From the IMG/VR virus record IMGVR_UViG_3300020044_003577, positions 1 through 60,120 of that record: a stretch of DNA of 60,120 nt; one strand, written 5' to 3'. Numbering within the stretch: position 1 is the stretch's first letter; the number at the start of each line of letters is the position of its first letter. The stretch is from a virus. Made by a program: the position numbers and the translations under genes. This document shows positions 7,518 to 43,494 of the stretch, in pieces. The notes under the pieces were generated by a model. It was given only the letters and a program-made list of their open reading frames with translations. It was not told where the DNA came from and made no database searches.

Positions 7518-7541
7518 GTTTCTCTATTAGGGGACTACTCT
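7518..7541 (-). promoter_or_regulatory. phage-RNAP promoter motif copy P1 (late arm, upstream of TerL)
   Basis: The minus strand reads AGAGTAGTCCCCTAATAGAGAAAC, with core GTCCCCTAATAG at 7524-7535. It is about 20 nt upstream of the TerL ATG. The TAATAG(G/A) end resembles the T7 class III ..CTATAGGGAGA. Confidence 0.6.
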
Positions 7542-7590: not shown

Positions 7591-7977
7591 TGGGTTTGTT
7601 TGTTCTCCCCTCCCTGTGTCGTGTGACCCCCCTGTCTCGTGGTGGTCGGTCGTGCTGCGGTGTCGGGTCGTTCTTGTCTCTCTTCCTCTGTCGGTGGTGC
7701 TGTGGCGCTGGTGCTGTCGACTTCCTTTGTTAGCGCTGTCTTGGAGTTCATTATGCGTTCTATCCTCTTGTTCGTTTGTCTTCGCCGTGGTTTTGGTTTG
7801 TCCTTCTCTACTGCCTGTGGTCACTTGCTTAATGCTTGGGGTCGTAGTGAGTGGTACAGTGACATGTCTACTGTTGACCTGTTCCTGTTGGCTACTCGTA
7901 AGTCTTAAGGGCTTTCTCGGTTGGCTCCTTGTGGGGCTTTCCGAGAGCGTCTTGCTCTGTTCTAAAAGGGGTTTGTT
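7591..7977 (+). other. adenine-depleted, strand-asymmetric non-coding leader
   Basis: By my count there are 2 A in 7591-7720, 7 A in 7591-7800 and 34 A in 7591-8040. The rest is T/G/C. Because stop codons need A (or T on the other strand), all six frames are open, which explains the four overlapping track ORFs here. Confidence 0.85.
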
Positions 7978-8579: not shown

Positions 8580-8586
8580 TAGTACA

Positions 8587-8633
8587 CTCTTCACGAGTAT
8601 AAGTGAGACCAGGGCATCAGGGGTAAGTACCTG
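8587..8633 (+). promoter_or_regulatory. early intergenic hairpin module 2
   Basis: CTCTTCAC-GAGTATAA-GTGAGACC (stem 8590-8594 with 8603-8607), then CAGG-GGTAAGTA-CCTG (8618-8633). It has the same layout as module 3, with compensatory stem changes. Confidence 0.4.
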
Positions 8634-8684
8634 CCTATGGGATGGTAACATACCACCTATTCACATTAACTCAAGGAGAACGTT

Positions 8685-8975: not shown

Positions 8976-8984
8976 CTAGCAATG

Positions 8985-9031
8985 CTCTTCTCGGGTAGAT
9001 AACTGAGAGACCTCTTGGGGTAAGTACCAAG
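8985..9031 (+). promoter_or_regulatory. early intergenic hairpin module 3
   Basis: CTCTTCTC-GGGTAGATAACT-GAGAGACC (stem 8988-8992 with 9005-9009), then CTTGG-GGTAAGTA-CCAAG (9014-9031). The loop is identical to module 2 but the stems differ and remain complementary. Confidence 0.4.
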
Positions 9032-9064
9032 GCCACATAACACACTCACCACAAGGGGATAAAC

Positions 9065-9501: not shown

Positions 9502-9566
9502 AAAGTATTTTGTGTGTGCTGAAAGTGTAACAAAGTGAATCAAAATGAACATAAAGGAAAGTTCAA

Positions 9567-19855: not shown

Positions 19856-19881
19856 CCGCAGTTGTCCCCTAATAGGAGTGA
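19856..19881 (+). promoter_or_regulatory. phage-RNAP promoter motif copy P4
   Basis: CCGCAGTTGTCCCCTAATAGGAGTGA, core at 19864-19875. The AGGAG inside it doubles as the RBS for the ATG at 19884. Confidence 0.6.
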
Positions 19882-26424: not shown

Positions 26425-28626
26425 ATGAATCCAGTACAATATCTATCTGAAAGAGTAGCCAAAGTCGTGGTCAACTCAGATAAGATTTATAATGAGGGTG
26501 CTCGACTACTAGCACATCATCCAACATGGGAATATGACTTAGAAAGGTTTGTAAATGAATCGTGGGACACACTTCTCCGCTACTGTATTCGCAACAAGAA
26601 TGCAACTCATAGCGCATCAGTTAAACTTACTTTTGCAAGTGACCTTATCGGAAAACGAATCGCAAGAGCTATTGGAACTGATGAAAGCAACATCAAATCA
26701 ACTCTCGCTCTTGGAGACATTCTACTCGAAACATTTCTCCAAGATAGCTTAATAGATATCTTCAGAGAGTATGATGGATTTAAGGCTCCATATATGGTAC
26801 GTATTGTCAATATGCCTGACAATATTAAGCCTACATTAATAGGTACTTCATTTGAACCTTTGTTACCTATAGCTGGTCTATATAGTAACCTTACTAAAGA
26901 GCCATTCATTAAGGGATGGACTAACAGTAAACTGTTTCATGAGTACTTAGATAAACCTTTTGTACGTGCATTAGAAACATTACGCCAACAACCTTGGGTA
27001 TTAAATCAGGGTGTGTTAGAAGGTATGAGGAATTATAAGCCAACTGAAATACTAGAGTTGGTTGATGATGATGGTGTGCTATATAACTACAACATTCATT
27101 ATGAAAATTTAGAACTACCAAAGAAACTTAAGCACCTAGATGGTACTTCTTTCCTTGGTAAGAAAGACCCTAAGCTACAACGTATGCTTAGTAAGTTCTT
27201 TGAATACAATCAAGTAGTAAAGAAAGCTGAATTGATTGGTGATAGATCATTCTATCAAGAAGTATCCTGTGACTATCGTGGTCGAGTATACTATGCTGAA
27301 TCCTTCTTAGAGTTTCAGGGTAGTGACTTAGCTCGTAGTCTCTTTTTATTTCAGAATAAAAAAGAGATGGATGATCGTGGTTACTTCTGGCTTAAGGTTC
27401 ATACAGCAGGATGCTATAATGAATCCTTTAATGTTAATAAATTACCACATTATTTTACTACTGACTATAAGACCTATTTAAAAGGAGAAGGTTTAGATAC
27501 TATTTCTCTTGATAAGATGACCCTTGAAGACAGAGCTATATGGGTAGATAATAACCTAGCTAAGATAGCTAGTATTGCTAATCATTATTATATAGATACC
27601 TCTGCTGAAAAGCCATATAGCTTACTAGCTTGTTGTCTTGAAATTAAAGCATATACACAGGCTAGATCTAAAAGTAAGAAGCATATGTCTGGTCTTCCTA
27701 TCCCTATCGATGGTAGTAATAATGGATGGCAACATCTGGCAGCTATGTCTAGAGATACCCAGGCAGCTACATTAGTGTCATTAGTACCTACACCTATACA
27801 GAAAGACTTCTATGTAGCTGTGGCTAAAGAACTAATTAACATCATGCCTGACTACTTTAAGCAAAAGAATATGCCTATGAAAGATATCCGTAAAGGTATT
27901 GCTAAACGAGGCTCCATGACTCGTGCGTACTCAGCAGGTAAACAGCGTATTGCTAAAAATATGTATGATGACTGCCATGTAGAAGGATTCACTGTTAAGT
28001 ATAATATCACAGAAAAAGAATGTGGAGATCTAGCAGGTAACTTAATTAAAGCTATCAATGCAGTATGCTCTGGTCCATTAAAGACAACTAAGTTTTTACA
28101 AAAAATTGCTGAACATGAACTTAACTCTGGTCGTAATCAGCTATCATGGCATACACCCTCAGGATTTCCTGTAGTATATAAAGCATTTCTCCAACATGAA
28201 CGTAAACATAGAGGTACTATCAGGGGTATACCTGGAAACCCCAAAGGAAGGATTAGACATGTTATTAAAGTGGATGTACTCAACAAAGACACAGGTGAAA
28301 AAGTTCCTTGTAGGCGCTCCTTTGCCTCTGGTATCAGTCCTAACGTTGTCCACAGTTACGATGCTGCTCATATGGCTAACGTTATCTCTATCTTTAATGG
28401 AAATTTTGGTGCTGTCCATGATAGTTTCAGTACTCATGCCAGCGAGGTAGACTTCTTACAGGAAGTAACTAAGATGACCTTTGTAGCACAGTATGATATA
28501 GACAATTTCTTTAGTAATCTTATGAATACATTAATGCTTAACAAAGATACATTCACCTATCCTCCACCAGAAGAAGGTACATTAGATTTAAAACAAGTCT
28601 ATGAATCTAAATACTTTTTCTGCTAG
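26425..28626 (+). CDS. T7-like single-subunit DNA-dependent RNA polymerase (733 aa)
   Basis: CDYRGRVYY (T/DxxGR); motif A PIDGSNNGWQHLAAM; motif B AKRGSMTRAYSAG; SPNVVHSYDAAHM; motif C AVHDSFSTH. Confidence 0.9.
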   Translation: MNPVQYLSERVAKVVVNSDKIYNEGARLLAHHPTWEYDLERFVNESWDTLLRYCIRNKNATHSASVKLTFASDLIGKRIARAIGTDESNIKSTLALGDILLETFLQDSLIDIFREYDGFKAPYMVRIVNMPDNIKPTLIGTSFEPLLPIAGLYSNLTKEPFIKGWTNSKLFHEYLDKPFVRALETLRQQPWVLNQGVLEGMRNYKPTEILELVDDDGVLYNYNIHYENLELPKKLKHLDGTSFLGKKDPKLQRMLSKFFEYNQVVKKAELIGDRSFYQEVSCDYRGRVYYAESFLEFQGSDLARSLFLFQNKKEMDDRGYFWLKVHTAGCYNESFNVNKLPHYFTTDYKTYLKGEGLDTISLDKMTLEDRAIWVDNNLAKIASIANHYYIDTSAEKPYSLLACCLEIKAYTQARSKSKKHMSGLPIPIDGSNNGWQHLAAMSRDTQAATLVSLVPTPIQKDFYVAVAKELINIMPDYFKQKNMPMKDIRKGIAKRGSMTRAYSAGKQRIAKNMYDDCHVEGFTVKYNITEKECGDLAGNLIKAINAVCSGPLKTTKFLQKIAEHELNSGRNQLSWHTPSGFPVVYKAFLQHERKHRGTIRGIPGNPKGRIRHVIKVDVLNKDTGEKVPCRRSFASGISPNVVHSYDAAHMANVISIFNGNFGAVHDSFSTHASEVDFLQEVTKMTFVAQYDIDNFFSNLMNTLMLNKDTFTYPPPEEGTLDLKQVYESKYFFC

Positions 28627-28646
28627 TTGTCCCCTAATACCGAAGA
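28621..28646 (+). promoter_or_regulatory. phage-RNAP promoter motif copy P5 (variant ..TAATAC)
   Basis: TGCTAGTTGTCCCCTAATACCGAAGA, core at 28629-28640. It overlaps the RNAP stop codon and is 25 nt upstream of the RNR ATG. Confidence 0.5.
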
Positions 28647-28664
28647 ATAAAACAAAAGGAACTC

Positions 28665-30542
28665 ATGAACTCTTATCAACAACTTATTGCTAAATCCCGT
28701 TATGCCCGTTACTTACCTGAAAAGAAACGTAGGGAAAATTGGAATGAAACCTCTGAACGTTGGGTAACCTTCTTTAAAAGAGAACTAAAGAATAAAATTA
28801 AACCAGATGACAGTATTTGGGATATCTTAGGTAATGAAATTAATAATTTGTCTACATTACCTTCAATGCGTTCTATCATGACAGCTGGTGAGGCTCTTCG
28901 CCGCACTAATGTAGCCGCATATAATTGTTCTTATTTACCTATAGATAATCCTCGTTGTTTTGATGAGGCCATGTACATCCTATTATGTGGTACTGGAGTG
29001 GGCTTCTCGGCTGAACAACAATATACGGGTCTATTACCCCAGGTACCTTCCCTTGTAAATGATCACAATGTTACCATCAAAGTACAGGACAGCAAAGAGG
29101 GTTGGTGTGATGCCTATCGTATCCTTATTAATATGCTATACCAAGGTACTATCCCTACATGGGATGTATCCTTAGTACGTCCTGCAGGTGCTCCACTTAA
29201 AACCTTTGGTGGTCGTGCTTCGGGTCCTGGTCCATTGATTGACTTGTTTAGTTATACAGTTAATAAGTTTATGATTGCCCAAGGACGTCAGCTAAAGCCT
29301 ATCGAGTGCCATGATATCATGTGTAAGATTGGTGAGGTAGTTGTTGTAGGTGGTGTACGCCGTAGTGCTATGATTAGCTTAGGTGACTTAGGAGACTATG
29401 ACCATGCTACCGCTAAGACAGGTACATGGTGGGAACAACATGGTGAACGTGCTCTGGCTAATAACTCAGCTGTATACAATAGTAAACCTTCTGTAGGTGA
29501 GTTCATGAAGGAGTGGTTAGATATCTATAACAGTCATTCAGGTGAACGAGGAATCTTTAATCGTGAAGCATCACAAAAACAAGCAGCAAAATGGGGTCGT
29601 CGTGATAGTACCACAGAGTATGGAACAAACCCTTGCTCAGAAATTATCCTCAAGCCCTACCAATTCTGTAATCTATCTACCGTTGTTGTATCTCCCGAAG
29701 ATACTTTGGAGTCACTCAAACATAAGGTAAGAATTGCTACTATCATGGGTACCATGCAATCAACCTTAACTTACTTCCCTTACCTACGTGATATCTGGCG
29801 TACTAATACTGAGTCAGAACGCCTACTAGGTGTGTCTATGACTGGTATTCTAGACAATCAGCTACTACGTGGTCAAGGTAATATGAACCTAGAAGAAGTC
29901 TTATCTATTCTTCGTAATGTATCTCGTGAGACTAATGAAGAATGGGCTGAGATCTTGGGTATCTCTGCTTCAACAGCTATTACCTGTGTTAAGCCTGAAG
30001 GTACTGTATCTCAGTTAACACAGACAAGTAGTGGTATCCATGCTGGGCATGCTCCCTACTATATTCGCCGTATTCGTCAGGATAAAAAGGATCCCTTAAC
30101 ACAGTTCTTAATTGAACAAGGTGTTCCTCATGAAGACTGTGTAATGAAACCTGACCAAACATCTGTGTTTAGTTTCCCACAACGTTCACCAGGATTTACC
30201 CGCAAAGACTTAACCGCTATTGATCACTTAAATATCTGGTTAATGTATCAGCGTTACTGGTGCGAACACAAACCATCTGTCACTATCTCTGTTAAAGAAC
30301 ATGAGTGGATGGAGGTAGGTTCATGGGTATATGAACACTTTGATGAATGTACTGGTATCAGCTTCTTACCTGATGATGGTGGTACTTATCGTCAGGCTCC
30401 ATACGAGGATATTGACTTGTCAGTATATCATCGTTTAAAAGATACACAACCCACTATTGATTGGGAAAACTTTATTGAAGATCGTGATAATGTTGAGGGT
30501 GCTCAAACATTAGCATGTGCAGCAGGAGGATGTGAGATTTGA
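28665..30542 (+). CDS. ribonucleotide reductase, single large chain (class II / NrdJ-like suspected)
   Basis: Catalytic NPCSEI..FCNLS. The C-terminal redox pair is CAAGGCEI. No NrdB-like gene is present in the genome, so a B12-dependent class II enzyme is suspected. The class assignment is unverified. Confidence 0.75.
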   Translation: MNSYQQLIAKSRYARYLPEKKRRENWNETSERWVTFFKRELKNKIKPDDSIWDILGNEINNLSTLPSMRSIMTAGEALRRTNVAAYNCSYLPIDNPRCFDEAMYILLCGTGVGFSAEQQYTGLLPQVPSLVNDHNVTIKVQDSKEGWCDAYRILINMLYQGTIPTWDVSLVRPAGAPLKTFGGRASGPGPLIDLFSYTVNKFMIAQGRQLKPIECHDIMCKIGEVVVVGGVRRSAMISLGDLGDYDHATAKTGTWWEQHGERALANNSAVYNSKPSVGEFMKEWLDIYNSHSGERGIFNREASQKQAAKWGRRDSTTEYGTNPCSEIILKPYQFCNLSTVVVSPEDTLESLKHKVRIATIMGTMQSTLTYFPYLRDIWRTNTESERLLGVSMTGILDNQLLRGQGNMNLEEVLSILRNVSRETNEEWAEILGISASTAITCVKPEGTVSQLTQTSSGIHAGHAPYYIRRIRQDKKDPLTQFLIEQGVPHEDCVMKPDQTSVFSFPQRSPGFTRKDLTAIDHLNIWLMYQRYWCEHKPSVTISVKEHEWMEVGSWVYEHFDECTGISFLPDDGGTYRQAPYEDIDLSVYHRLKDTQPTIDWENFIEDRDNVEGAQTLACAAGGCEI

Positions 30543-30808
30543 ACTTATATAAATTTTATACAGAAACATGTGTACCATGTAGACAGATGAATGAACGTAT
30601 TAAGGATGTAGACTTTATGCTGGACTATGGTGTAGTATTTAATAGTATTAATGCACATATTTATCCAGATAAAACTAAGCTGTATGACGTCAAGACAGTA
30701 CCTACGTTTGTATTGACTGATGATAACGATAACTTAATCAGAAAGATTAATGGTGCAATTTCATTACAACAACTAGATACTTTTATTACAGGAACAGCCG
30801 TCCCCTAA
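30539..30808 (+). CDS. thioredoxin/glutaredoxin-fold redoxin (NrdC/NrdH-like)
   Basis: 89 aa with a CVPC active site near the N-terminus and ..VPTFV.. downstream. TTG start overlapping the RNR stop. Confidence 0.65.
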   Translation: MNLYKFYTETCVPCRQMNERIKDVDFMLDYGVVFNSINAHIYPDKTKLYDVKTVPTFVLTDDNDNLIRKINGAISLQQLDTFITGTAVP

Positions 30809-30817
30809 TAGGGAACA
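30792..30817 (+). promoter_or_regulatory. phage-RNAP promoter motif copy P6 (tRNA operon)
   Basis: GAACAGCCGTCCCCTAATAGGGAACA, core at 30800-30811. It spans the redoxin stop codon (TAA 30806-30808) and ends 8 nt before tRNA 1. Confidence 0.6.
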
Positions 30818-30818
30818 A

Positions 30819-30893
30819 TGCGGAGTAGCTCAATGGTAGAGCAGGGGACTCATAATCCCTTGGTCACTGGTTCGATCCCAGTTTCCGCAACCA
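30819..30893 (+). tRNA. tRNA with CAT anticodon (Met, fMet or Ile2; undecided), CCA encoded
   Basis: Hand-folded cloverleaf. Acceptor TGCGGAG/TTCCGCA; D arm GCTC-AATGGTA-GAGC; anticodon arm GGGGA-CTCATAA-TCCCT; T arm ACTGG-TTCGATC-CCAGT; discriminator A plus CCA. Confidence 0.85.
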
Positions 30894-30904
30894 TTCAAGA
30901 ATAT

Positions 30905-30979
30905 AGCGGGATAGCTCAGTAGGAGAGCGCTGGACTCATAATCCAGAGGTCGGTGGTGCGAATCCACTTTCCGCAACCA
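30905..30979 (+). tRNA. second tRNA with CAT anticodon, A1xA72 mismatch, CCA encoded
   Basis: Acceptor AGCGGGA/TTCCGCA (positions 1-72 unpaired); D arm GCTC-AGTAGGA-GAGC; anticodon arm CTGGA-CTCATAA-TCCAG; T arm GGTGG-TGCGAAT-CCACT. Confidence 0.8.
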
Positions 30980-31354: not shown

Positions 31355-31429
31355 GGGTCATTAGTTCAATGGATAGAACAGTGATCTTCTAAGTCACGAG
31401 TGCATGTTCGATTCATGCATGACCCACCA
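31355..31429 (+). tRNA. tRNA-Arg (anticodon TCT), CCA encoded
   Basis: Acceptor GGGTCAT/ATGACCC; D arm GTTC-AATGGATA-GAAC; anticodon arm GTGAT-CTTCTAA-GTCAC; T arm GCATG-TTCGATT-CATGC; discriminator A plus CCA. Confidence 0.85.
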
Positions 31430-32833: not shown

Positions 32834-32880
32834 AAAAAAATAGCCCTTCAAGGAATTATCCTTGAGGGGCTTTTTATTTT
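32832..32880. terminator. bidirectional intrinsic terminator at the convergence of the two arms
   Basis: 12-bp stem GCCCTTCAAGGA/TCCTTGAGGGGC (32843-32854 with 32859-32870), loop ATTA. It is flanked by an A-run upstream and a T-run downstream. Confidence 0.8.
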
Positions 32881-32881
32881 G

Positions 32882-35800
32882 TTATGCGTGAGTCATTTGA
32901 GCAATACCATATTTTATTACATTATTGTTTGTACGTAATGCTTTAAAACCTTGATCTACTTTTCCTTCAAATTCATTTGCAAAAATCTTAAACATATTTT
33001 CTGCACCACCTAATTGCTGGTAAGATTCAATCATATTAAATAAGTCTCTAAATTGTGAACCAGATACTGTTAGATTAGGTATACCATCAATCCAACCTGC
33101 TTTCTTAGCTTTATCTAATAGTTGATTGTTTTTTGCTTTAAGATCTTCCCAACTTTTAATTGGATCTTTTGATCTATTTTTAATATAGGTTTCATACTCT
33201 GGACTATGATTAGTCTTCTTATTTAAGTCATCAAAGAAAGCCCCTAATGCAGGAAAGTCTCCTTTAGTACCTATACCTACATCTGATGCACCAGCTGTTC
33301 TTCTAAACACTTCATCTTTAGCTTTGATATAAGCATTCTCTAATTGTTTAGCAAACTTCTTAATTTCAGGTATTGCCTGAGGAATTGCTACGTTATTATA
33401 AGTATTACGATAAAGATGCATTGTATCCATTGTTGTGATCAATGAATCGTGAACAGTTGCTACAGGCAAAGGTATCTTTCTATCTGCATTTAAATCTAGC
33501 ATCATTAACTTAAGTAGGTCAGCATCAGTAGATTGAATAGGCATAACACCTAATAATCTAGATAACGCAGAACCAAGAGCATTCTCAAATAAGTCAAACT
33601 TATTTTTAGCTTTATTCCAGAATGATTGGTTGGGTTTAGCAGCAGAAGCATTGTACATTCTTCTTGCTGCCTGTACTTCTACAATACCTTCAGGAGCTAA
33701 ATAGGTATTTGTTTGAACACCTTTGTCAACAGTAGTATAAGCTTGTCCTTCAGGAGTCATACCAGTACCTTCTACATCTCTGAATTGATCTGGGATAAAA
33801 CCTAAGTCAACAGATGAGTATACTGTGTCATCTCCTGTAATACCTTTTAATATAGGTATCGAGTTAATGACAGCAAACATACGACCAACCTTCTTTAGCA
33901 TACGAGTAAAGCTTGGATCAATCACTTTTCTTAAAGTTGTATCTAGTGCATTAGCTAAATCTTGAGCTGCTTCAGTTGAACTATTATAGTTAGGTAAAAC
34001 ATTTTCAGCAAATATAGCATTGTATTCTTGTGAATCTTCTAAAAAGGATAACACATGATCAAAGAACATACCAGAATCTTTACCATAAGAATTCTGCATT
34101 AAAGGTGCTTTAAATAAATCTGATGCTAACTTTTCATTTAATGCTTCACTAAAGAAAGTTTTCCAACCATCAAGTCTAGCCTTATTATCAGGAATTAAAT
34201 TAGATAAATTATCACCAATAATATTAAGAGCATAACCACGCATGTCAGATAGATTAGGGTTATAAGAACCTAATCTAATTGCAACAGTAGGTTTACTTGC
34301 ATACAATGATTGAATAAAGATACCATTTTGGTTTCCATCATCATAGTTTAAAGCACTAAGTTTAATATGACGGTTAGCCATTGCAGGATCCATTGCTGCC
34401 ATACCTAATTGAGAAAAGTCATCCCAAAGATTTTGATATGCTTGTGCTTCACCTCTAGGCATATTAGCAAGTAAGCTAACAATGTTTGATCCTTCAGATA
34501 CTTTTCCTGCTAACCAGTCATTATATTCTTTTCCTAACATACCTAGATGTTTACCAATATCAGAATTATACATTCTAATTAATTGTATTTCAGGTTGCTT
34601 TTTAATATCTTTATTTTGTACAGAAGGATCACCACTAAAGCTATAGTAATTAACTACAGCACATTCCATAAGACCAAGAGCAGTTCTTTCAGATGGTGTT
34701 AATGCCATTAAAGCTTTGTTACGAGCTTTACCTGACTTGCTAAATATACCCATTGCTTTGTCTTGTAAGTTTTTAATTTTTACAGGATCAAAGAAATGAT
34801 TAGCGTAAGTTAAACCTTGGATACCAAAGTTAAGCATCTCACGAGTAGCATTTTTAGACGCTAGTATGTCAGTACCAGCATTATTTCTGAAGAAACGTTG
34901 ATTAGCCATTGAATGAGAATAGCCTGTGTACACTACACCTTTAATTTTTTGAGCATTTTCTAAATCATATTCCATATAGTGAATAGCATTTGTTATAACC
35001 GATTTAGCGTGTTGATTTTGTAGCTCAACAAACTTAGCTCTAGATACTGGGTTATTAATATCATAATCACTAGGTGGTTTAACTCTTTGTTTAAGTTTAT
35101 TATAGTCTGATAAAGATACTTTATGACGTTTAGCAAAAGGGCTAGTAGAATAAAAACCTTCTGGACCATCTACAATATTTCTTTTGATATCTTCTAATTG
35201 CATACTAGTAGATAACATAGTCTTTGGTAAAAAGATTTCACCAATAGAACCAAACATATCTTTAACTGTTTCAGCTACAGTTTGTTTAGCACCTTCCATA
35301 GGTAAAGAATTCTTTGTACCTTGTGAACCAGGCTTAATAAAATTAGACCCAGCTATTTGTGGTACTTTAGAAGGTAAAGATCTACGTTCGTCACCTGCTA
35401 GTGCTGCTGACATATAACTTAATTCAGCTGCTAAGTCTTTTAATTCTTTAGAAGAACCATACACCCAATTATTATTTTTATCTAGCATAGGTACATGACG
35501 TTGTTGAGCAATTTCTGCTTCAACTTTAGCTTCTGCTAATTGCCTTACTGCTTCAGCAGGAATTTCCATACCTAAATTAGATAACGCATTGTGCATTGAA
35601 GCAATAGTAGAGTTAACTAAGTTTGTCTTTGGTTGGGCATCCATAAGGTTACCATTATGGTCTCTTACTTCAGCAACGTCATCAAATGAATCTGTCTTAA
35701 TACCATTTTTAAATAACCGTGATTGCTCAGTAGCTCGTGCATGTGCAATACCTAACACTGTAGATATTGGTCTGGCATATTCTAAAGGAATATTATTAGT

Positions 35801-36496
35801 ATTTAAAATTTCTAAACCAGCAGGAACACCATAGTATCCTTCAGCAGTACTTCGAATAACAGAGTCAGGACTAAACAAATCAGCTGCAGTAGCATCTGAC
35901 ACCATACCTAAGGCAGGTGCAGCAGAGTCAGCCCAACGTTTGATAAGCTCATCATCCATATTCATGAACTGAGATGTACCCGCTGGCATACTTTCTGCTT
36001 GAGATACTTCTGCTCTTGCTCTAAGAATAGCTCTACCTGCTTCTACTGGATCTTCAGTCATCAAGGCAGGAGCCATATTAGGTCTGGTAGATAAGTCAGC
36101 TTCTTGTTGTTTACTATAATCTTCCATTGTTACAGGTTGAGTTATATACTCACCAGTCTCAGGATTAAACTCAGGCATACCTTGTTCATCTTCTACTTGA
36201 CTAAGTCTTTCTCGACCAGCAAGAGATGATTGAGTAGCCTGAGCCAAATCTTCAGGAGTTGATTGTGCAGATAACCTATCTATATTAACTGGACCAGCAA
36301 TACCCCCAGCGGGTAGGGGTACTACAGGAATAGGCTGTGGATTATATACATCCATAGCTTGTTTAACTGCTTCTGTCCCAGGTATTTCTACCTGAGGTGC
36401 AGCACCAGTACCAAAGGCTTGGTTAGAGAATGCTTGCAATTGCTCTGCACTTAAAGGTGCTCTGCCTTGCGTATTTACATTTACATTAATTGCCAT
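32882..36496 (-). CDS. diverged T7/N4-type single-subunit RNA polymerase homologue in the virion module (candidate virion RNAP, 1204 aa)
   Basis: Motifs occur in canonical order: SMANQRFFRNNAGTDIL (R534); motif A LNYDDGNQNGIFIQ (D719/D720); motif B FKAPLMQNSYGK (K796, Y804-G805); GVMPIQSTDADLL; motif C ATVHDSLI (D1017). It is the last gene of the late operon, after the giant internal proteins. Confidence 0.65.
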   Translation of the reverse strand: MAINVNVNTQGRAPLSAEQLQAFSNQAFGTGAAPQVEIPGTEAVKQAMDVYNPQPIPVVPLPAGGIAGPVNIDRLSAQSTPEDLAQATQSSLAGRERLSQVEDEQGMPEFNPETGEYITQPVTMEDYSKQQEADLSTRPNMAPALMTEDPVEAGRAILRARAEVSQAESMPAGTSQFMNMDDELIKRWADSAAPALGMVSDATAADLFSPDSVIRSTAEGYYGVPAGLEILNTNNIPLEYARPISTVLGIAHARATEQSRLFKNGIKTDSFDDVAEVRDHNGNLMDAQPKTNLVNSTIASMHNALSNLGMEIPAEAVRQLAEAKVEAEIAQQRHVPMLDKNNNWVYGSSKELKDLAAELSYMSAALAGDERRSLPSKVPQIAGSNFIKPGSQGTKNSLPMEGAKQTVAETVKDMFGSIGEIFLPKTMLSTSMQLEDIKRNIVDGPEGFYSTSPFAKRHKVSLSDYNKLKQRVKPPSDYDINNPVSRAKFVELQNQHAKSVITNAIHYMEYDLENAQKIKGVVYTGYSHSMANQRFFRNNAGTDILASKNATREMLNFGIQGLTYANHFFDPVKIKNLQDKAMGIFSKSGKARNKALMALTPSERTALGLMECAVVNYYSFSGDPSVQNKDIKKQPEIQLIRMYNSDIGKHLGMLGKEYNDWLAGKVSEGSNIVSLLANMPRGEAQAYQNLWDDFSQLGMAAMDPAMANRHIKLSALNYDDGNQNGIFIQSLYASKPTVAIRLGSYNPNLSDMRGYALNIIGDNLSNLIPDNKARLDGWKTFFSEALNEKLASDLFKAPLMQNSYGKDSGMFFDHVLSFLEDSQEYNAIFAENVLPNYNSSTEAAQDLANALDTTLRKVIDPSFTRMLKKVGRMFAVINSIPILKGITGDDTVYSSVDLGFIPDQFRDVEGTGMTPEGQAYTTVDKGVQTNTYLAPEGIVEVQAARRMYNASAAKPNQSFWNKAKNKFDLFENALGSALSRLLGVMPIQSTDADLLKLMMLDLNADRKIPLPVATVHDSLITTMDTMHLYRNTYNNVAIPQAIPEIKKFAKQLENAYIKAKDEVFRRTAGASDVGIGTKGDFPALGAFFDDLNKKTNHSPEYETYIKNRSKDPIKSWEDLKAKNNQLLDKAKKAGWIDGIPNLTVSGSQFRDLFNMIESYQQLGGAENMFKIFANEFEGKVDQGFKALRTNNNVIKYGIAQMTHA

Positions 36497-39400
36497 TTAT
36501 TTTCCTTTAAAAGCATTTACAAGTTCTTCTGCCGTATAGTTACTTACTACAGGGAAACTACCAATAACAGGCATAGCTCTCATTATCTTTTTAGCGCCCT
36601 TCATTTCTTTTCCTTCAGCTATATTGTATGCACCTTCAATAGGTTTAGCTACCCATGATGCAACAGGTGAAGCACCCTTAGCTTTATCTACAGCCCATTC
36701 TAAAGGTCTTTCTGTAAATTTAGCACTACTAAATTCAATAGTAGGTGATATAGCTTCAGTTATCTTTTCTGCTTGACCAATTAAACCTGATGAATTTAAA
36801 ATACGTTGAGCTTTCTTTGCTCTACTTTTTACATAAGGGCTATCTTCACCATAAGATAATTGATCTTTAAACATATTAACAAAAGCACTCATGATTAATG
36901 TCATACCCATAGTAGCAAAAGCATCATACCTCATACCAACACTACCATTAAGAATGTGTTGCTTGTATAGTCTGGGTAGTAAAACTGCTGTAGCTGTGCC
37001 CATAAACTTTTGCATAGTAGTAATTATTTTAAACCTTGGATCATTATAAATCTTTGGTGTGTTAAATGGTTGTGGATTAACAATACGAGAATCAACAAAG
37101 TTAATTAATGCAGTATAAATATTGTCTTGTATACCTTCATACATAGGAAATTCTTGTTCTGTATTTAGAAATCCACCTTCAAAAGGAGACATACTAAATT
37201 GACTTCCCATAACATCTATTGCATTAAGCATATGAGGTACGTTTAAACCATATTGTTGTAACTGAATTAAAGCCTGTTGTTGCTCTACAGTTAAACCTTT
37301 ACCAGTAGCAAATGCAACATCACGAATAGCAGGATCAACCCCACTAAGTGTGTTAAGTTGAGTCATCATAATATCACCAGCAACACTAAGAACAGCCATA
37401 CGGTTAGCATCTGTCTGCGCTCTTAAAGAAATAGCAGAAACAAACACACCCATAATCTTACGTAGTTTGTTAGTATCAGTACCACCAAAGTCATATTTGT
37501 TAGATGCATCAAAACCAGCTTCATGAAAACCTAATCTACTAAAAGTTTTTCTATTGTAATATCTTTTATGTAAATTATCTATTTCTTTTTGAATTGCATC
37601 AAGAGATGCTTGAGAAGCATTAGGTGCATTTAATTTAGAATTTAACTCATCTAACCTTTCCTGTAAACTTACATCAGGTACTTGTCTTAAATGCTTAATA
37701 CCAAATAATGAGGCAGCAAATGATGCACCCTTAGCCATATCAGTAGCATATTCAGTAGCATATTCTTGCGCATAAGTAGAAAATTGTTTTCCTAATAATT
37801 TAGCAGGAGTACCTAAGCTTGCTAAAGTTGCTTCAGCCTGAGAAGAAATAGCTGCTTTAGATAATGAAGATAACAATGCTGCTGTAACTAAATAATTTTG
37901 TAAGGAAGATATAAAAGGACTTTCAATATTATTGTAGTCGTTATTAGTAATATCATACCATGCTCTTACTTCTGTTGTTGCAGCTTTAAAGGCTTTTTCA
38001 TCAACCACACCATTAGCATCATCAAATTCACCAGCATCTTTAGCTGCTAATAAAAGTTTACCCAGGATATTACCATCTTTTCCAAGATAAGTTGCATGCA
38101 TCACTTGATGAGCTGTTCTTTCTTTCATATGCTCAATACTATCAAGAATATTACTATGAAATATATGTTGTAAATTAGGGTTAGTAAAGAAGCCATATTG
38201 GGATAAATAGTCTACTGCAGCACTTGCTTTTGCTCTATTAGAGATATTAAGGTTATTAACAGCAGTAGTAGCCTCTGATCTTGTTGCTCCACTATTAACC
38301 ATTTCATTTACAATAAGTGGTTTATTATTATTAAGCTTAGGAACATCAATACGAGATGATTGAAATAAAGCATTTTCATCTAGCAAATGATTAAATGGTA
38401 ACCCAGCATCAATAGCAGATTGTGCCATTGATTTTCTAGTATTATCTAATTTTTCTTTCCAATTTTGAAGAATAACATTTTGTTCTGTATTAAGTGGAAG
38501 TTGTAAACCCTGAGACCAATAATTGTTATAAGCCTCTTTTACCATTTCATTAACAGACTGTTTGTTAACACCAAAACCCATTATACCAGTTAACCTAGAA
38601 GCTAAATCATATGCTCCACCATCAGACCATTTACCCATAAGTTTTTGCTGAAATACAGAAGCAGAGTCTCCTGGTAATATACCAAAACCTCCCATTATAG
38701 CTTTAAGGTAAGCTGAATTATATTTAAAGTTACCATTGCTATCTGTAATAGATGGAATAGCAGTGTGACTTAATTGTCTCCATAAAGATAATGGATCAGA
38801 TATTGTTTGTTTAATACCTTCAAACCAACCTTTGTTTGTAGCTAAACTAGCTAAAGAAGTATCAGGATATTTTGAACCTTGATTAGCTACATGCTTAGCT
38901 AATGAAGTAATATCAGCATGACCCCCAGGTTGTTTATTATCTAATAATTTTGCTTTTATTTTTTCTTGATTATCAGCTTGAAAAGCCTGTGAATCAGAAA
39001 CTGTTTTATCATAAAGTCTTTGGGCATCTACAGCTGAATGCCATCCAGCCATATCAAATGCCCCACGTGCTCCATGAAAACCAGCACCCATAACAGCACC
39101 ACCAACAAAGGCATCTTCTAGCTGGTCTTTGTAACTTAAATCATATTTATAATTACGATTCCATTGACCTGCTTGACCCAGCATTTGTAGTTCTTGCTGC
39201 ATTAATTCAGTACCACCTTCACCACCAGCAGCTATAACTGCTCTACCACCTGCTTTAGCAGCACCTTCCATAGATAACAATTGTCTTGTAGCAAATTCTT
39301 TTCCAAAGCCTGTTAATGCTAATATTTCTTGTTTAGTAGCATTTTGTAAAAGATTTTCAGCTTCTAATCTAGTTGCTGCTTTACCGTTTTGAATCATAGC

Positions 39401-40816
39401 ATTAATGACTTCTTCTTTACCTGTAACAGTAAATAATCCAGCACCTAATTTGCCTGATAAAAATTCAAGACCTACTCTATCTAATACACCTGAACCAATA
39501 CCAGCAGTAATAGCTAATGTAGCATTCTTTTTATCATCAGGTTGATCAGCATAAAATTGTCCTGTATAAAAGAAAGAACCAGGAATTGTAGACAAAGCTA
39601 TACCTAAAGAAGATCCACCAGAAGCATAAGCAGAACCCATCATAGTAACCATTTGAGGTAATGTACCTGCAAATAAATTACCTGTATAGGTTAATGTATC
39701 TTTAGCAGTATTCCACCAACCTGAATCAGTATTAATATCTCTAAATGAAGATAATGTTGCTGGTAAATCTGCCTGGGTCATCTTAATACCATTAACATGC
39801 GCTTTGGCATTGTCCTTTAGTTCATCCCAACCAGTTTTCTCACCAACCATTTCTACGTTACCCCAAAAACCTTTAGACATATCTTTAATAGCACTATAAA
39901 AGCTAGTACTCATTTGATCATGGGCTTGGTTCATTATAGTTCTGTCATTACTACGGAACTGTACACCACCTACTACATCAGGTAAATAAGAAGCATAAAA
40001 CATCTGTTGTTGTGCTGCTTCTTTTTGCTTTAATAGTTTAGCTTTAATTTCAGGAGGTATTTGTTGACCACCACCTGTTGTGTAAGACATAGCACCTTCA
40101 AAGCCTACTGCATTAAAGTCAGGTATTAATTCAGGTCTACCTTCACTGGCTAATATAGCATCAATCTTTTTGATAGTATCTCTGGCATTATTAATACCTC
40201 TGATACCTGTACTGTTTTTATATGCAGCATATTGTTCTTCGTTAAAAGCATTTATCTTAGGGACATACTGGCGTCTTCCAGCTTCAGCAAATTCTTTGTC
40301 TCTACGTTCATTTTCTTTAACTACTTCTGCTAATATAGGATCTCGTTTAGCTCTTTCAGGAAAAGCTTTTATGATAGCTTGTGTATTGTAATACTCCTCA
40401 GCAGAATCTTTATCAGTAAATTGGTTAGGTGCTACTATACCTGTTCTTGATAAGAAGTTAGCAGCATTTTCACCAGTAGTAGGATTAACAAGTTTAGCTA
40501 CTCCACGATCATAACTTTTTTTACCAGTAGGTTGTAAGTCAGTAAATTCTGCTTGGTTAAGTATCTTAGGTATTTGAGGTGATACCCCTTGCTCTTGTGG
40601 AGGAAGGAATATACCATCATATCTATGTGCAACCTCAGGTGCATTGTAACCTTCAATACGATAATCTTTATTATTTACTTTAACAGTATCAGGATCAACC
40701 CACTTCTGAGGGCCTTGAACCTTTTTACTGTTAATAGTTAAAGCAGAGCCTGAAGAAGGGGCTATAGCTGCATTATCAGCAAGTACATCATTAACATAGT
40801 CATCTAACGATTTCAT
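36497..40816 (-). CDS. giant internal virion/ejection protein (1439 aa) with N-terminal SNase-like nuclease domain
   Basis: Residues ~30-135 read VDPDTVKV..YRIEGYNAPEV..SYDRGVAKLVNPTTGENAANFLSRTGIVA. These parallel staphylococcal nuclease DGDTVKL / FRLLLVDTPE / [19 protein letters not shown]. The rest contains Gly/Ala-rich hydrophobic segments typical of ejection proteins. Confidence 0.6.
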   Translation of the reverse strand: MKSLDDYVNDVLADNAAIAPSSGSALTINSKKVQGPQKWVDPDTVKVNNKDYRIEGYNAPEVAHRYDGIFLPPQEQGVSPQIPKILNQAEFTDLQPTGKKSYDRGVAKLVNPTTGENAANFLSRTGIVAPNQFTDKDSAEEYYNTQAIIKAFPERAKRDPILAEVVKENERRDKEFAEAGRRQYVPKINAFNEEQYAAYKNSTGIRGINNARDTIKKIDAILASEGRPELIPDFNAVGFEGAMSYTTGGGQQIPPEIKAKLLKQKEAAQQQMFYASYLPDVVGGVQFRSNDRTIMNQAHDQMSTSFYSAIKDMSKGFWGNVEMVGEKTGWDELKDNAKAHVNGIKMTQADLPATLSSFRDINTDSGWWNTAKDTLTYTGNLFAGTLPQMVTMMGSAYASGGSSLGIALSTIPGSFFYTGQFYADQPDDKKNATLAITAGIGSGVLDRVGLEFLSGKLGAGLFTVTGKEEVINAMIQNGKAATRLEAENLLQNATKQEILALTGFGKEFATRQLLSMEGAAKAGGRAVIAAGGEGGTELMQQELQMLGQAGQWNRNYKYDLSYKDQLEDAFVGGAVMGAGFHGARGAFDMAGWHSAVDAQRLYDKTVSDSQAFQADNQEKIKAKLLDNKQPGGHADITSLAKHVANQGSKYPDTSLASLATNKGWFEGIKQTISDPLSLWRQLSHTAIPSITDSNGNFKYNSAYLKAIMGGFGILPGDSASVFQQKLMGKWSDGGAYDLASRLTGIMGFGVNKQSVNEMVKEAYNNYWSQGLQLPLNTEQNVILQNWKEKLDNTRKSMAQSAIDAGLPFNHLLDENALFQSSRIDVPKLNNNKPLIVNEMVNSGATRSEATTAVNNLNISNRAKASAAVDYLSQYGFFTNPNLQHIFHSNILDSIEHMKERTAHQVMHATYLGKDGNILGKLLLAAKDAGEFDDANGVVDEKAFKAATTEVRAWYDITNNDYNNIESPFISSLQNYLVTAALLSSLSKAAISSQAEATLASLGTPAKLLGKQFSTYAQEYATEYATDMAKGASFAASLFGIKHLRQVPDVSLQERLDELNSKLNAPNASQASLDAIQKEIDNLHKRYYNRKTFSRLGFHEAGFDASNKYDFGGTDTNKLRKIMGVFVSAISLRAQTDANRMAVLSVAGDIMMTQLNTLSGVDPAIRDVAFATGKGLTVEQQQALIQLQQYGLNVPHMLNAIDVMGSQFSMSPFEGGFLNTEQEFPMYEGIQDNIYTALINFVDSRIVNPQPFNTPKIYNDPRFKIITTMQKFMGTATAVLLPRLYKQHILNGSVGMRYDAFATMGMTLIMSAFVNMFKDQLSYGEDSPYVKSRAKKAQRILNSSGLIGQAEKITEAISPTIEFSSAKFTERPLEWAVDKAKGASPVASWVAKPIEGAYNIAEGKEMKGAKKIMRAMPVIGSFPVVSNYTAEELVNAFKGK

Positions 40817-40833
40817 AATAACCCCTTTTCAGT

Positions 40834-43494
40834 TTATTTTGTTTTAGGTTCAGTGTAGGCTTTCCATTTATTAGGATTTCCTGTGGTTGTTGATATAGCC
40901 CAATCTTGGAATGTACTATAACCTTTTTGAGTAAGATTAGATTTTTCCATTTTAGCTCTAACATCTGCTGGTATAGAATTAAATTGTCTTTTCAAAGCTT
41001 CATACGCAGTTTGGTCATCTATTACTTGATTCCTTGAAGCAGCATTATTTATAACTGTATCTAAAGCACCAGTGAATTCAGTCATAGATTGTGCAGATAA
41101 ACTTTTACCATTAGGCTTCCACAAATTTGAATCAGAAGGGCTACTAGTTTTGGCAATGTTACCACGAATAACTTGTCTAATAGCTTTGGGGTCTTGAACT
41201 CCAGATTCTACAAGTTGGGGAATAGATAAATTCATAACATCTGCTTTATTATCAATAGTTAATCCTCCAGGAATACTAGCAAGTATCCTATTAGAATTAT
41301 TAGCTATTGCTTTAGCATTAATTGGTTTTCCATCTTTATCCTTAGCACCCTCGGGTATTAAAGCTTCAACTTTTTTAGTAACAGTATCTTCTTCATATCG
41401 ATGAGCTTCAATAGTTTTAACAGCATTAAATGGAATTGTTCTACCATCCATAGTTTGATATTGACCTTTATGATATTGAACTGGCATAAGTTCACCATTT
41501 ACAATCATCATATCTGGTTTCTTAGGATACTTACCTTTACCACTACCTTCACCATCATCATCACCGCCACTACCACCTTTACGACCATATCCAGGAGGAT
41601 AATGTTGAACGTTAGCTGCTAAATATGTAGTAGCATTACGCATATTATTTAACCAATCTTGAGGTGTTTTAGCTTCTGCAAACGCCATACTTAAACCTTT
41701 TGATCTTACTGCAGGAGGAACATCCATAGCTAAATATTGTTGTAGCTTATCGTTAAGGTGTTGTTGCTCTGCTCTGGCATCTTTAGATTGAGTATGATTC
41801 CATCTATTATCTTCTTTTAATATTTCAAATCTTCTATCAGCTTCTCTAGCAGCTTGGATAGCCTCTTCTTTTCTTTCTTGTAAAGATAATCTTTTCTCAG
41901 TAAGCTTTCTATCAGCTTCTGCTTTCTTATCAGCTTTAGCTTGTCCAGCTAATGTAATAGCAGTACGCATATCTTCACGTTCAGCTTGAGCAGCTAATTG
42001 CTTATCTTGACGCTTGTTAGCTTCTTCTTGAGCCTGTCTACGTAAAGAAGTTTCAAATGCTTGTCTACCACCATAAGATAATGCACGAGCAGTGCTATAA
42101 CCCAAAGCACGACCACCTACAGTAGCTACAGCTAATCGAGCAACTTCCTGATCATTTAAACCTAAGACACTCTTAATACCTTTGTACGTAAATAAATCCT
42201 TAAGCGAATTAATAGCAGATTCATCGTCTTTATTAGCCATAGCTTTATCAACATCTTTTTGAGAACCTCTTAAATGCTTAATCCAATATTCAGGTCTGGT
42301 ATCATCATCTTCTGGCTTTAATGAAGGAACAATTTTACCCTCATTAACATCTATTACTGCTTGCATCTCAGCATCTGATGCTTGTTTAGCATTTGGATCA
42401 GGGATAAATGCAACTGGTTCTACAGGCATATCAATAGTGCTATTGTTACCACCAACAGACTTAGCTACAATAGGAGAAGGTACAGGAAAACGATCTTTAC
42501 CTTCAACAACTACTTTAGGTTTAGCAGCAAGCATTGGTAAAGGTTCAATTACTTCCATACCTACATTTTTAAAAGGTCTTTCTTTAATATCAAACTCTGA
42601 GCTAACACTACCATTAATCATTGCTTGTACATCTTTTAGCTTTATGTCTGCAGTTACATCTGGATAAGCAGAACGAGGAACCGCATTTTCTATTTTTTCT
42701 TCTGTTGTAGGAATCTTAATTAGATTTTCAGGGATTACATTTTGATAATGTACTACTGGGCTAGCAACTACTGTTGGTTCAAGTATAGGCCTAGGCTCAG
42801 GTACATCTTCAACACCATCTTCATAATGATAACTAGCTGAACTACCTCTATTAAAGTCATATACTCTTTCAGTACCGTCTTCAAAAGAAGATCCAGGTAC
42901 ATCAGAATGCTCATATGCTAATGATGGTACAGGTACTTGAATAGTACCTTCATTATATCCAGCAGCTTGTTGTACTCTACTAGGAATAACATCTGAGTTA
43001 GCAATGTTAATAGAACCATCACGAAATCCTAAAAATCCCTTTTTAGTTTTGTTAGCTTTTCTACCCTCTTGAACCATACGTTTAATAATAGGTTTATTCT
43101 TAGGGTTTTGAGCAGCAGGCTCAGGGATAACAGCCTCACCAGGAGTTAACATAGCGGGTACTGTATCTGTATTTTGTTTAGCAGTTTTCCTAGCTTTAGC
43201 AGCATCTTCTACTTGGTATGGTAACATATGTTGACCACGCTTAAAAATTTCAGCGCCTGCTAGCGGGTTAGGTGTCTTAGGTTTTAATGGAGCACCTAAT
43301 GTACCCATCTTATATTTGTGAACTTCTTCTTTATGACCTAATGTTTGTCCAGCTTTACCAGCAGCTTCTACAAGTTTAATTTCATGTAGTTGTTGTTTAC
43401 GGGCTTCTTCCCGTTCCATCTTAGCTGTTTCTCTGGCTTCTTGTGCAGAAAACTTTAAGTACTCTCTGTGTTGTTTAGCAGATAGTGGTCCCAT
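40834..43494 (-). CDS. large internal virion protein (886 aa), coiled-coil rich
   Basis: Size, charged coiled-coil stretches and its position before the 1439-aa gene. No enzymatic motif seen. Confidence 0.55.
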   Translation of the reverse strand: MGPLSAKQHREYLKFSAQEARETAKMEREEARKQQLHEIKLVEAAGKAGQTLGHKEEVHKYKMGTLGAPLKPKTPNPLAGAEIFKRGQHMLPYQVEDAAKARKTAKQNTDTVPAMLTPGEAVIPEPAAQNPKNKPIIKRMVQEGRKANKTKKGFLGFRDGSINIANSDVIPSRVQQAAGYNEGTIQVPVPSLAYEHSDVPGSSFEDGTERVYDFNRGSSASYHYEDGVEDVPEPRPILEPTVVASPVVHYQNVIPENLIKIPTTEEKIENAVPRSAYPDVTADIKLKDVQAMINGSVSSEFDIKERPFKNVGMEVIEPLPMLAAKPKVVVEGKDRFPVPSPIVAKSVGGNNSTIDMPVEPVAFIPDPNAKQASDAEMQAVIDVNEGKIVPSLKPEDDDTRPEYWIKHLRGSQKDVDKAMANKDDESAINSLKDLFTYKGIKSVLGLNDQEVARLAVATVGGRALGYSTARALSYGGRQAFETSLRRQAQEEANKRQDKQLAAQAEREDMRTAITLAGQAKADKKAEADRKLTEKRLSLQERKEEAIQAAREADRRFEILKEDNRWNHTQSKDARAEQQHLNDKLQQYLAMDVPPAVRSKGLSMAFAEAKTPQDWLNNMRNATTYLAANVQHYPPGYGRKGGSGGDDDGEGSGKGKYPKKPDMMIVNGELMPVQYHKGQYQTMDGRTIPFNAVKTIEAHRYEEDTVTKKVEALIPEGAKDKDGKPINAKAIANNSNRILASIPGGLTIDNKADVMNLSIPQLVESGVQDPKAIRQVIRGNIAKTSSPSDSNLWKPNGKSLSAQSMTEFTGALDTVINNAASRNQVIDDQTAYEALKRQFNSIPADVRAKMEKSNLTQKGYSTFQDWAISTTTGNPNKWKAYTEPKTK

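Follow-up and report, generated by a model that had tools for sequence, protein, structure and literature searches.

What kind of protein does the last late gene of this phage encode? The question is raised by a 1,204-codon open reading frame (ORF) at 32882..36496 on the minus strand of the IMG/VR virus record IMGVR_UViG_3300020044_003577, analysed here as one stretch of 60,120 nucleotides (nt; the window). An earlier note, made from the sequence alone, had read its product, p1204 (1204 amino acids, aa), as a second, highly diverged single-subunit RNA polymerase (ssRNAP) at the distal end of the virion and ejection-protein operon. The ORF is present on that strand as claimed, and structural matches, profile alignment and invariant active-site residues together support the reading: p1204 is almost certainly a homologue of the single-subunit RNA polymerases of T7, mitochondria and N4. 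It represents a third, previously unrecognised phage lineage of this class, roughly equally distant from the T7-type and N4-type enzymes and outside the current Pfam model.

Predicted structure of p1204

We predicted the structure of p1204 with AlphaFold2, without templates and from a family-only alignment of 57 sequences. The model covers residues 5-1204, with a mean predicted local distance difference test score (pLDDT) of 90.7 and a predicted template modelling score (pTM) of 0.90. The check that the earlier note had proposed, a Foldseek search with a predicted structure alongside profile comparison, came out in its favour: the search against the PDB gave 72 hits at E ≤ 1e-3, of which the first 50 are all ssRNAPs, with E values from 6e-14 to 2e-9. 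These matches align over about 1000-1100 columns, N-terminal domain included, and the Foldseek probability is 1.00 for dozens of ssRNAPs. The best match is the yeast mitochondrial enzyme Rpo41 (8c5u_A, E 6e-14); T7 RNA polymerase (RNAP) is matched at E 2e-12 over 1051 aligned columns (3e2e_A, target TM 0.52), and human POLRMT is among the top 50. Among the predicted viral structures of BFVD, T7-like phage RNAPs stand on top from E 6e-14, and pieces of N4-like virion RNA polymerases (vRNAPs) follow at about 1e-11 to 1e-5; the first 45 hits are RNAPs or uncharacterised phage proteins, and DNA polymerases begin only at rank 46, with E 1.8e-4. As a control, the comparably large model of the neighbouring 1439-aa protein (p1439) gave no match better than E 0.02, with a TM of 0.08.

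The modelled secondary structure around the catalytic motifs fits the palm and fingers, and the canonical active site, of an ssRNAP. In the model, a β-strand ending at D720 and a helix after it make up motif A, residues 790-803 form the helix of motif B, and motif C folds as a β-hairpin whose turn holds H1016 and D1017. A β-rich insertion is predicted between motifs B and C (residues ~880-970), where T7 RNAP has its specificity loop.

Polymerase motifs and conserved residues

The claim that p1204 carries the catalytic signatures of T7-type RNAPs in canonical order rested on six quoted peptides, and all six are found in the protein (residues 529-545, 716-729, 739-755, 795-806, 983-995 and 1013-1020). 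The T7 strings set beside them are present in T7 RNAP, and PIDGSNNGWQH, the motif A string quoted from the canonical 733-aa RNAP of the same phage (RNAP733), sits at residue 427 of that enzyme. The distances are as the note had counted them, 76 residues from D720 to K796 and 221 from K796 to D1017. The segments that carry the motifs, with invariance outside the first line given for the diverse members described below, are these:

34826..34912, minus strand: T/DxxGR-like motif, residues 529-557; R534 and R552 invariant in 102 sequences.
34295..34351, minus strand: motif A LNYDDGNQNGIFIQ, residues 716-734; predicted catalytic D720, with G725 at the T7 G542 position.
34079..34129, minus strand: motif B/O-helix, residues 790-806 (K-x3-K-x-P-L-M-x3-Y-G-K); Y804 invariant, G805 near-invariant.
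33431..33550, minus strand: pre-C (GVMPIQSTD) and motif C (VHDSLIT), residues 983-1022; D991 and D1017 invariant, Q988 and H1016 near-invariant.

In the first of these, the T/D and G positions of T/DxxGR are lost in p1204 (S-M-A-N-Q-R) and R534 is invariant; in motif B, the family consensus is K-x3-K/R-x-P-x-M-x3-Y-G-K.

Conservation across the family falls on the same residues. In an alignment of 102 sequences with a mean column identity of 11%, the only invariant residues are R534, R552 and D1017, and D720, Y804, K806 and D991 are conserved at ≥90%. Among 37 diverse members, which share 14-37% identity with p1204, nothing is invariant besides the initiator methionine and R534, R552, D720, Y804, D991 and D1017, with G805, H1016 and Q988 near-invariant. 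The most conserved positions of the family are those assigned to polymerase motifs, more than chance would give.

Profile alignment with hhalign pairs these residues with their T7 counterparts. A profile of 37 family sequences aligned with a small T7-type alignment at E 1e-4 and with a 20-sequence template at E 6e-5, placing residues 706-1075 of p1204 on residues 523-872 of T7 RNAP. In motif A, D720 falls on T7 D537 and G725 on G542; in motif B, K796 falls on K631, Y804 on Y639 and G805 on G640; and in pre-C and C, Q988 falls on H784, D991 on D787, H1016 on H811 and D1017 on D812. The motif A, B, pre-C and C pairings that had been drawn by eye are thereby reproduced residue for residue. The first pairing, that of the T/DxxGR-like motif, recurs in an extended, lower-confidence alignment, in which alone, at low stringency, R534 is placed on T7 R425 and R552 on T7 K441. 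Against N4 mini-vRNAP the match is weak (E 0.039) and limited to the motif C region, with D1017 on N4 D951, the motif C aspartate of that enzyme. Searched against PDB sequences with hmmsearch, the family profile gave human mitochondrial RNAP for all ten best matches, none of them significant (E ~0.5); the pairing there is of IQSxD...VHD with PNFIHSLD...VHD.

As judged from the conserved and aligned residues, the active site of p1204 appears intact, and we consider it very probable that the protein would act as a polymerase. A glycine at the T7 G542 position and a tyrosine at the Y639 position lend indirect support to a preference for ribonucleotides.

A widespread family without annotation

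Shallow searches do not reveal this relationship. p1204 did not reach the gathering threshold of PF00940; tblastn against 50,697 GenBank phage records, N4-like phages included, returned no match; PDB sequences gave no match to the single sequence or to a 6-sequence profile; and the same shallow profile, compared by hhalign with T7 RNAP, N4 mini-vRNAP and RNAP733, gave nothing either. The family was therefore deepened before further comparison. A word-indexed search found five full-length homologues of 49-54% identity, and an exhaustive profile search of 1.84 billion representative proteins, with residues 431-1204 as the query, found 139 clusters at E ≤ 1e-3. The full-length hits are nearly all 1150-1500 aa long, and none of the hits of this search has the length of a T7-type (~700-900 aa) or N4-type (~3500 aa) enzyme. 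When Pfam was run on the 37 diverse members, one reached PF00940, at E 0.0011.

The only cultured carrier is Roseobacter phage (roseophage) CRP-7. Its gp33, of 1235 aa and annotated as a 'hypothetical protein', matches p1204 in the motif C region at a pairwise E of 9e-7. The paper on CRP-7 does not discuss the gp33 gene (PMC6918029), and we found no later paper on it. In IMG/VR, the phage group that carries the family has 205 relatives by TerL.

Position at the end of the late operon

The gene for p1204 closes a block of three giant genes, in the order 886-aa, 1439-aa and 1204-aa, and faces an arm that encodes a canonical polymerase:

40834..43494, minus strand: p886 (886 aa), first of the three-gene block, 0 Cys; positional equivalent of an 818-aa protein in a distant relative (locus L099).
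36497..40816, minus strand: p1439 (1439 aa), all-α, 0 Cys, presumed internal or ejection protein; homologous to CRP-7 gp34 (E 9e-19).
32842..32871, plus strand: terminator-like G+C-rich hairpin with a T-run, between the converging arms.
26425..28626, plus strand: canonical T7-type RNA polymerase of 733 aa (RNAP733), the partner enzyme; PF00940 at E 4e-56, phrog_414 at E 5e-95.

The window has an exact 121-nt terminal repeat (1-121 = 60000-60120); the assembly is closed or circularly permuted, the genome is about 59,999 bp, and the major head gene (59334-59903) spans the window ends. The late operon runs through TerL (5862-7502), portal (2273-4543), scaffold (479-1618), head, tail/fibre and lysis genes to the genes for p886, p1439 and p1204. 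As the contig is circular, the order TerL > portal > scaffold > head > tail > p1204 holds across the wrap-around, and the late order that the earlier note had likened to that of N4, TerL > portal > capsid > ... > RNAP, stands once the wrap-around is counted. Likewise borne out is its placement of the gene as the last late one, after the 886-aa and 1439-aa giants and at the point of convergence, a position that recurs in every relative examined, down to ~15% identity. The ATG of the p1204 gene abuts the TAA of the 1439-aa gene (TAAATG), and translation of p1204 is probably coupled to that of p1439. Downstream, the hairpin sets the gene apart from the converging plus-strand arm; upstream, the nearest promoter-like motifs are those before TerL and before a gene for a 513-aa structural protein. 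Besides RNAP733, the phage encodes a primase-helicase, a Pol A with an exonuclease domain and a ribonucleotide reductase (RNR).

Evidence that p1204 may be a virion protein

Four independent observations, drawn from gene order, domain content, composition and divergence, make it likely that p1204 would be packaged in the virion. The gene order is kept over great distances. In each of the 15 contexts that extend far enough, a gene for a p1439 homologue stands immediately upstream of the RNAP-like one. In CRP-7, gp35, gp34 and gp33 (giant, giant and RNAP-like) converge on the canonical gp30, and the same block is found in a 59-kb Logan contig whose record starts inside the 1439-aa homologue. Among 13 IMG/VR loci, 11 have the 1439-then-1204 pair and 11 a converging PF00940 RNAP. 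Two very distant members lie in blocks of 818, 1401 and 1215 aa (P0066) and of 838, 1385 and 1498 aa (P0136), and wherever the flank of a relative extends that far, a canonical RNAP is found in it.

In the P0066 context (L099), the first giant of the block, the 818-aa protein encoded at 3282-5738 on the plus strand, carries a PF01464 SLT lytic transglycosylase domain. Domains of this kind are characteristic of the internal or ejected proteins of podoviruses, for example T7 gp16. It was found in the first block protein of L099 and L100 only; p886 has no domain detectable with Pfam or PHROG, and neither p886 nor p1439 has a match in these two collections. AlphaFold2 modelled residues 240-1439 of p1439 as all-helical, at low confidence (pLDDT 63.5).

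Cysteines are nearly absent from the block: p886 and p1439 have none and p1204 has one. Across the p1204 family, 86 of 102 members have no cysteine and 101 have two or fewer. CRP-7 gp33, gp34 and gp35 have none, and neither do N4 gp50, gp51 and gp52 in 4294 residues. The cytoplasmic enzymes of the phage have 9-14 each (RNAP733 10, DNA polymerase 12, RNR 14), T7 RNAP has 12 and the canonical RNAP of CRP-7 has 14.

Finally, p1204 diverges in step with p1439. Between this genome and a relative (L012), RNAP733 is 97.8% and RNR 97.4% identical, against 49% for p1204 and 43% for p1439. Over a wider set of loci (L006-L018), the replication and transcription genes are 78-98% identical and the 1204-aa and 1439-aa proteins 33-50% (32882-43494 versus 26425-30542). 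p1204 thus evolves with the ejection-type module and not with the replication and transcription genes, which points to the end of the structural arm as a fast-evolving or exchanged module. A polymerase that is made last is, moreover, most easily understood as one kept for the next infection.

The N terminus of p1439 drew attention in its own right. The string WVDPDTVKV..YRIEGYNAPE..YDRGVAKL (residues ~40-110; 40500-40700, minus strand) resembles the active-site motifs of staphylococcal nuclease (thermonuclease), and one database source names the p1439 homologue P0285 'endonuclease YncB (thermonuclease family)'. Pfam gave no match for a nuclease-like N terminus of p1439, which leaves the resemblance as a lead only. 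We also considered whether N4 gp50 might correspond to a fusion of p886, p1439 and p1204, whose lengths sum to 3529 aa against 3500 aa; no similarity was found, the domain order differs, and the idea was rejected.

A proposed transcription programme

These observations suggest a cycle in which p1204 would be expressed late, from a transcript shared with the virion genes and with its translation probably coupled to that of the gene upstream, and would be packaged in the capsid with p886 and p1439 as a set of internal or ejection proteins. Ejected into the cell at the next infection, it would transcribe the early arm from ~7.55 kb, independently of the host RNA polymerase. The canonical 733-aa enzyme would then take over at promoters of the GT(T/A)GTCCCCTAATAGG type, including the one upstream of TerL. 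Functionally, this scheme would equal the N4 programme (vRNAP, then RNAPII), with an injected enzyme about one-third the size. We regard the whole packaged-and-injected polymerase explanation as reasonably likely, and the part of it that makes p1204 responsible for early transcription as a little better than an even call.

The DNA offers several candidate signals for such a division of labour:

7523..7538, minus strand: motif 1, GTAGTCCCCTAATAGA, a candidate promoter for a phage RNAP 20 nt ahead of the TerL start.
7591..7975, plus strand: leader almost devoid of adenine on its sense strand, with which the early arm opens; lowest 300-nt window ~6% A, against a genome mean of 31%.
8584..8639, plus strand: double-hairpin element (motif 2), copy 1; candidate early promoter or RNA processing site.
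8981..9036, plus strand: double-hairpin element (motif 2), copy 2; candidate early promoter or RNA processing site.

Motif 1 is the 16-nt sequence GT(T/A)GTCCCCTAATAGG and occurs at 7 sites against 0.48 expected (7523-7538, 11724-11739, 12250-12265, 19861-19876, 28626-28641, 30797-30812 and 51138-51153). In both arms, every copy precedes a gene by 15-40 nt and shares its orientation; among the genes that follow are those for TerL and the RNR, one structural gene and a tRNA cluster. Relatives have clade-specific variants of the motif at the same place upstream of TerL (TAGTCGGTTCCTATTAGGAAA, TAGTCGGTACATAATAGAGAAA), as would be expected if a promoter and the phage polymerase that reads it evolve together.

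Motif 2 has the form [CTCTTCNC-loop-GNGAGA]-CC-N-[CTTGG-GGTAAGTA-CCAAG]. It is confined to the early arm, always co-oriented and 35-60 nt upstream of early ORFs, and relatives (L019-L089) have 33 further distinct copies with the same orientation and the same core. Its stems show a few compensatory changes (CAC/GTG versus CTC/GAG, and CTTGG/CCAAG versus CAGG/CCTG); variants with an insertion were misaligned by MAFFT, and these changes are individual cases. Rfam has no family for motif 2, and its folding energy is not exceptional.

In the leader, the AT skew falls to -0.84. An A-poor leader is kept upstream of TerL in relatives (L020-L091), over 200-1000 nt and down to 1% A. The extreme case (L058) has 3 A in 600 nt, a stretch that, read from its sequence, appears to be a single long ORF of A-less, NNT-rich codons. 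As ideas for its function, we consider avoidance of A/T-containing palindromic restriction or methylation sites on the first-entering DNA, an mRNA resistant to A-specific RNases, and transcription without ATP.

Alternative explanations

The fold and active-site evidence would fit equally well an active ssRNAP that is never packaged and works late in the cytoplasm, as a late-gene transcriptase or as a primer-forming or replication-associated enzyme, its place in the operon setting its timing only; priming of replication is a known activity of T7-type and mitochondrial RNAPs. We judge this unlikely, though it is the most probable of the alternatives. As the product of the last late gene, such an enzyme would appear only after late transcription was already running, in a phage that already has a canonical RNAP and a primase-helicase. 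It would also leave unexplained a loss of cysteines that p1204 has in common with its two neighbours and with N4 gp50, gp51 and gp52, but not with the cytoplasmic enzymes of the phage, and a divergence that follows the p1439 module and not the replication and transcription module. The same block position and cysteine-free composition that speak for packaging would suit a structural or ejection protein that derives from an RNAP and has lost catalysis, serving as a scaffold, a DNA-binding plug or a genome-delivery motor, and the very high divergence from canonical RNAPs and the lack of a Pfam match are in keeping with this. What makes such a protein improbable is the identity of the residues that survive: at a mean column identity of 11-16%, those that are invariant are both metal-binding aspartates, the O-helix Tyr-Gly and the arginine of the T/DxxGR-like motif. 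Invariance of catalytic and NTP-binding residues is the pattern expected of an active enzyme and not of a scaffold.

Two further readings concern the class of the protein. Motifs A, B and C are common to the whole Pol A superfamily, and the Pfam model DNA_pol_A weakly matches p1204 at motif C (E 0.028), which would suit a DNA polymerase of family A or some other right-hand nucleotidyltransferase. However, the full-length structural matches are to RNAPs, with DNA polymerases starting only at rank 46 in BFVD; hhalign places a glycine of p1204 at the T7 G542 position, where Pol I enzymes have a glutamate steric gate; and a separate gene of the phage already encodes a Pol A with an exonuclease domain. 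A DNA polymerase is therefore very improbable. That short motifs match by chance in an unrelated fold might have been suspected when single-sequence and shallow-profile searches found nothing, but this is refuted by a confident model that matches dozens of ssRNAPs at a Foldseek probability of 1.00, and an independent profile-profile alignment gives the same motif pairings, at residues that are the invariant columns of the family; we give it a negligible chance.

Other results weigh against the packaged and injected polymerase itself, or against parts of it. Sequence-level support for ssRNAP homology is modest (hhalign E ~1e-4, PDB hmmsearch E ~0.5), and p1204 has no match in Pfam or PHROG at E ≤ 0.01. 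Within the motifs, the T7 H784 position is occupied by a glutamine (Q988), and the K631-equivalent position is an arginine in the consensus of the more diverse alignment. The p1439 model has no meaningful Foldseek match, solved ejection proteins included, and neither BLAST nor hhalign linked p886 or p1439 to N4 gp50, gp51 or gp52. The large N- and C-terminal domains of N4 vRNAP, which have been implicated in injection and encapsidation, are missing in p1204, and a compact globule of 1200 residues, as modelled (pTM 0.90), would need unfolding to pass the tail. The gene for the canonical RNAP stands apart from the first genes, ~19 kb away from the early junction. The absence of sigma70-like sites from the plus strand at 7450-9780 speaks for early transcription by a phage enzyme, but it comes from a scan with a crude consensus that may not be the host's. 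An injected enzyme acting on the early-arm signals and the 733-aa enzyme on motif 1 is the simplest model, but this assignment of motifs to polymerases is a guess.

Comparison with known systems

The closest functional parallel to the proposed packaged polymerase is N4 gp50. Both proteins have the ssRNAP fold (pieces of N4-like enzymes in BFVD, and D1017 aligned to D951), and both are encoded by the last gene of a leftward late operon, by ejection-protein genes and converging on the replication arm. N4 gp50 has no cysteines, like most of the p1204 family, and each is paired with a second T7-type polymerase. The two differ in build: N4 gp50 is a 3500-aa protein with N-terminal, central RNAP and C-terminal domains, whereas p1204 is one RNAP-sized unit of 1204 aa, without significant sequence similarity to N4 mini-vRNAP (hhalign E 0.039). 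N4 gp51 and gp52 are unrelated to the neighbours of p1204. The second enzyme of N4, RNAPII (gp15/gp16), is a heterodimer, whereas the partner here is one 733-aa chain encoded far from the early end. In N4, the vRNAP is counted as the third ejection protein, recognises hairpin promoters and makes the transcripts of the RNAPII genes (PMC13434306); for p1204, packaging is predicted and the hairpins are candidate promoters. The earlier note had read this phage as combining an injected polymerase with a promoter-specific T7-like enzyme; such a pairing is already that of N4 (vRNAP plus RNAPII) and is not new.

T7 RNAP and its relatives in Autographiviridae (PF00940) resemble p1204 in overall fold, N-terminal domain included. 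The order of motifs A, B, pre-C and C, with aligned catalytic residues, is that of T7 RNAP, and a T/DxxGR-like motif comes before them at lower confidence. p1204 is ~320 residues longer, with its large β-rich insertion between motifs B and C, has a glutamine in place of H784, and belongs to a family with nearly no cysteines, compared with 12 in T7 RNAP. T7-type RNAPs belong to the early or middle module, whereas p1204 lies in the virion module, beside a genuine PF00940 enzyme. The mitochondrial RNAPs (Rpo41 and POLRMT) are the best structural matches of p1204, at 10-13% identity. They are cellular enzymes and, unlike p1204, have PPR and N-terminal extensions and dedicated initiation factors; the matches imply no closeness of p1204 to them beyond the shared ssRNAP class.

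Polymerases carried in the particle and delivered with the DNA are described for crAss-like phages, jumbo phages of the phiKZ/AR9 type and, as a tape-measure fusion, P23-45 (10.1101/2022.12.01.518664, PMC10612078). The strategy is the same as that proposed here, but these virion RNAPs are of the two-barrel (multisubunit-type) fold class. The T7 core proteins gp14, gp15 and gp16 resemble the present block as very large α-helical genes at the distal end of the structural operon, and T7 gp16 has an SLT domain, as does the first block member of L099. None of the T7 core proteins is a polymerase, and no sequence or fold similarity was found for p886 or p1439.

What is new

The enzyme class and the proposed strategy are already known; the lineage and its form are new. 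The p1204 family is unrecognised by Pfam and PHROGs and is a compact single unit, one-third the size of N4 vRNAP. It occurs in a widespread group of ~60-kb aquatic podophages (CRP-7-like) outside Schitoviridae, with a canonical T7-type enzyme beside it. With the family recognised, a conserved 'hypothetical protein' would receive an annotation in hundreds of viral contigs from an abundant marine group; the CRP-7 hosts are Roseobacter RCA strains. A third deep lineage of the T7/mitochondrial/N4 class would bear on the origin of mitochondrial RNAP, and p1204 could supply an orthogonal polymerase for biotechnology. Even if p1204 is not packaged, two very different T7-class polymerases in one phage are unusual.

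If it is packaged, p1204 would be the smallest known virion RNA polymerase, at about one-third of N4's. A virion-borne ssRNAP has so far been held to be a hallmark of the N4-like Schitoviridae, and the strategy would be broader and older. How the 3500-residue N4 vRNAP passes the tail is an open problem, for which p1204 would offer a minimal and tractable system of translocation and refolding. More tentatively, and with somewhat less than even confidence, we suggest that aquatic CRP-7-like podophages deliver a minimal RNAP of 1.2 kaa (thousand amino acids) through the tail as an ejection protein and so start infection without the host RNAP, on the A-poor leader and hairpin region. If this is true, virion-borne T7-class polymerases would be an ancient and general podovirus strategy, of which N4's 3500-aa giant is one elaborated form, and the p1204 family would be the smallest natural injected transcription machine.

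Other features of the window

Further observations concern other parts of the genome. In the structural arm, a 372-aa protein (45070-46188, minus strand) has PHROG matches to 'ferrochelatase' and to a 2OG-Fe(II) oxygenase and resembles the product of an auxiliary metabolic gene, unusually placed. The endolysin and Rz-like spanin genes (51153-51617 and 51598-52155, minus strand) lie in the middle of the structural operon, between tail-fibre and virion-protein genes. Downstream of the RNR gene are two tandem tRNA-Met (CAT) genes, 74% identical, as well as a gene for tRNA-Arg (TCT) (30819-30979 and 31355-31429, plus strand); CRP-7 also carries the tRNA-Arg (TCT). Inside the gene for a 1175-aa tail-fibre protein, degenerate tandem repeats of 21 nt (7 codons) form a long array (55849-56673, minus strand).

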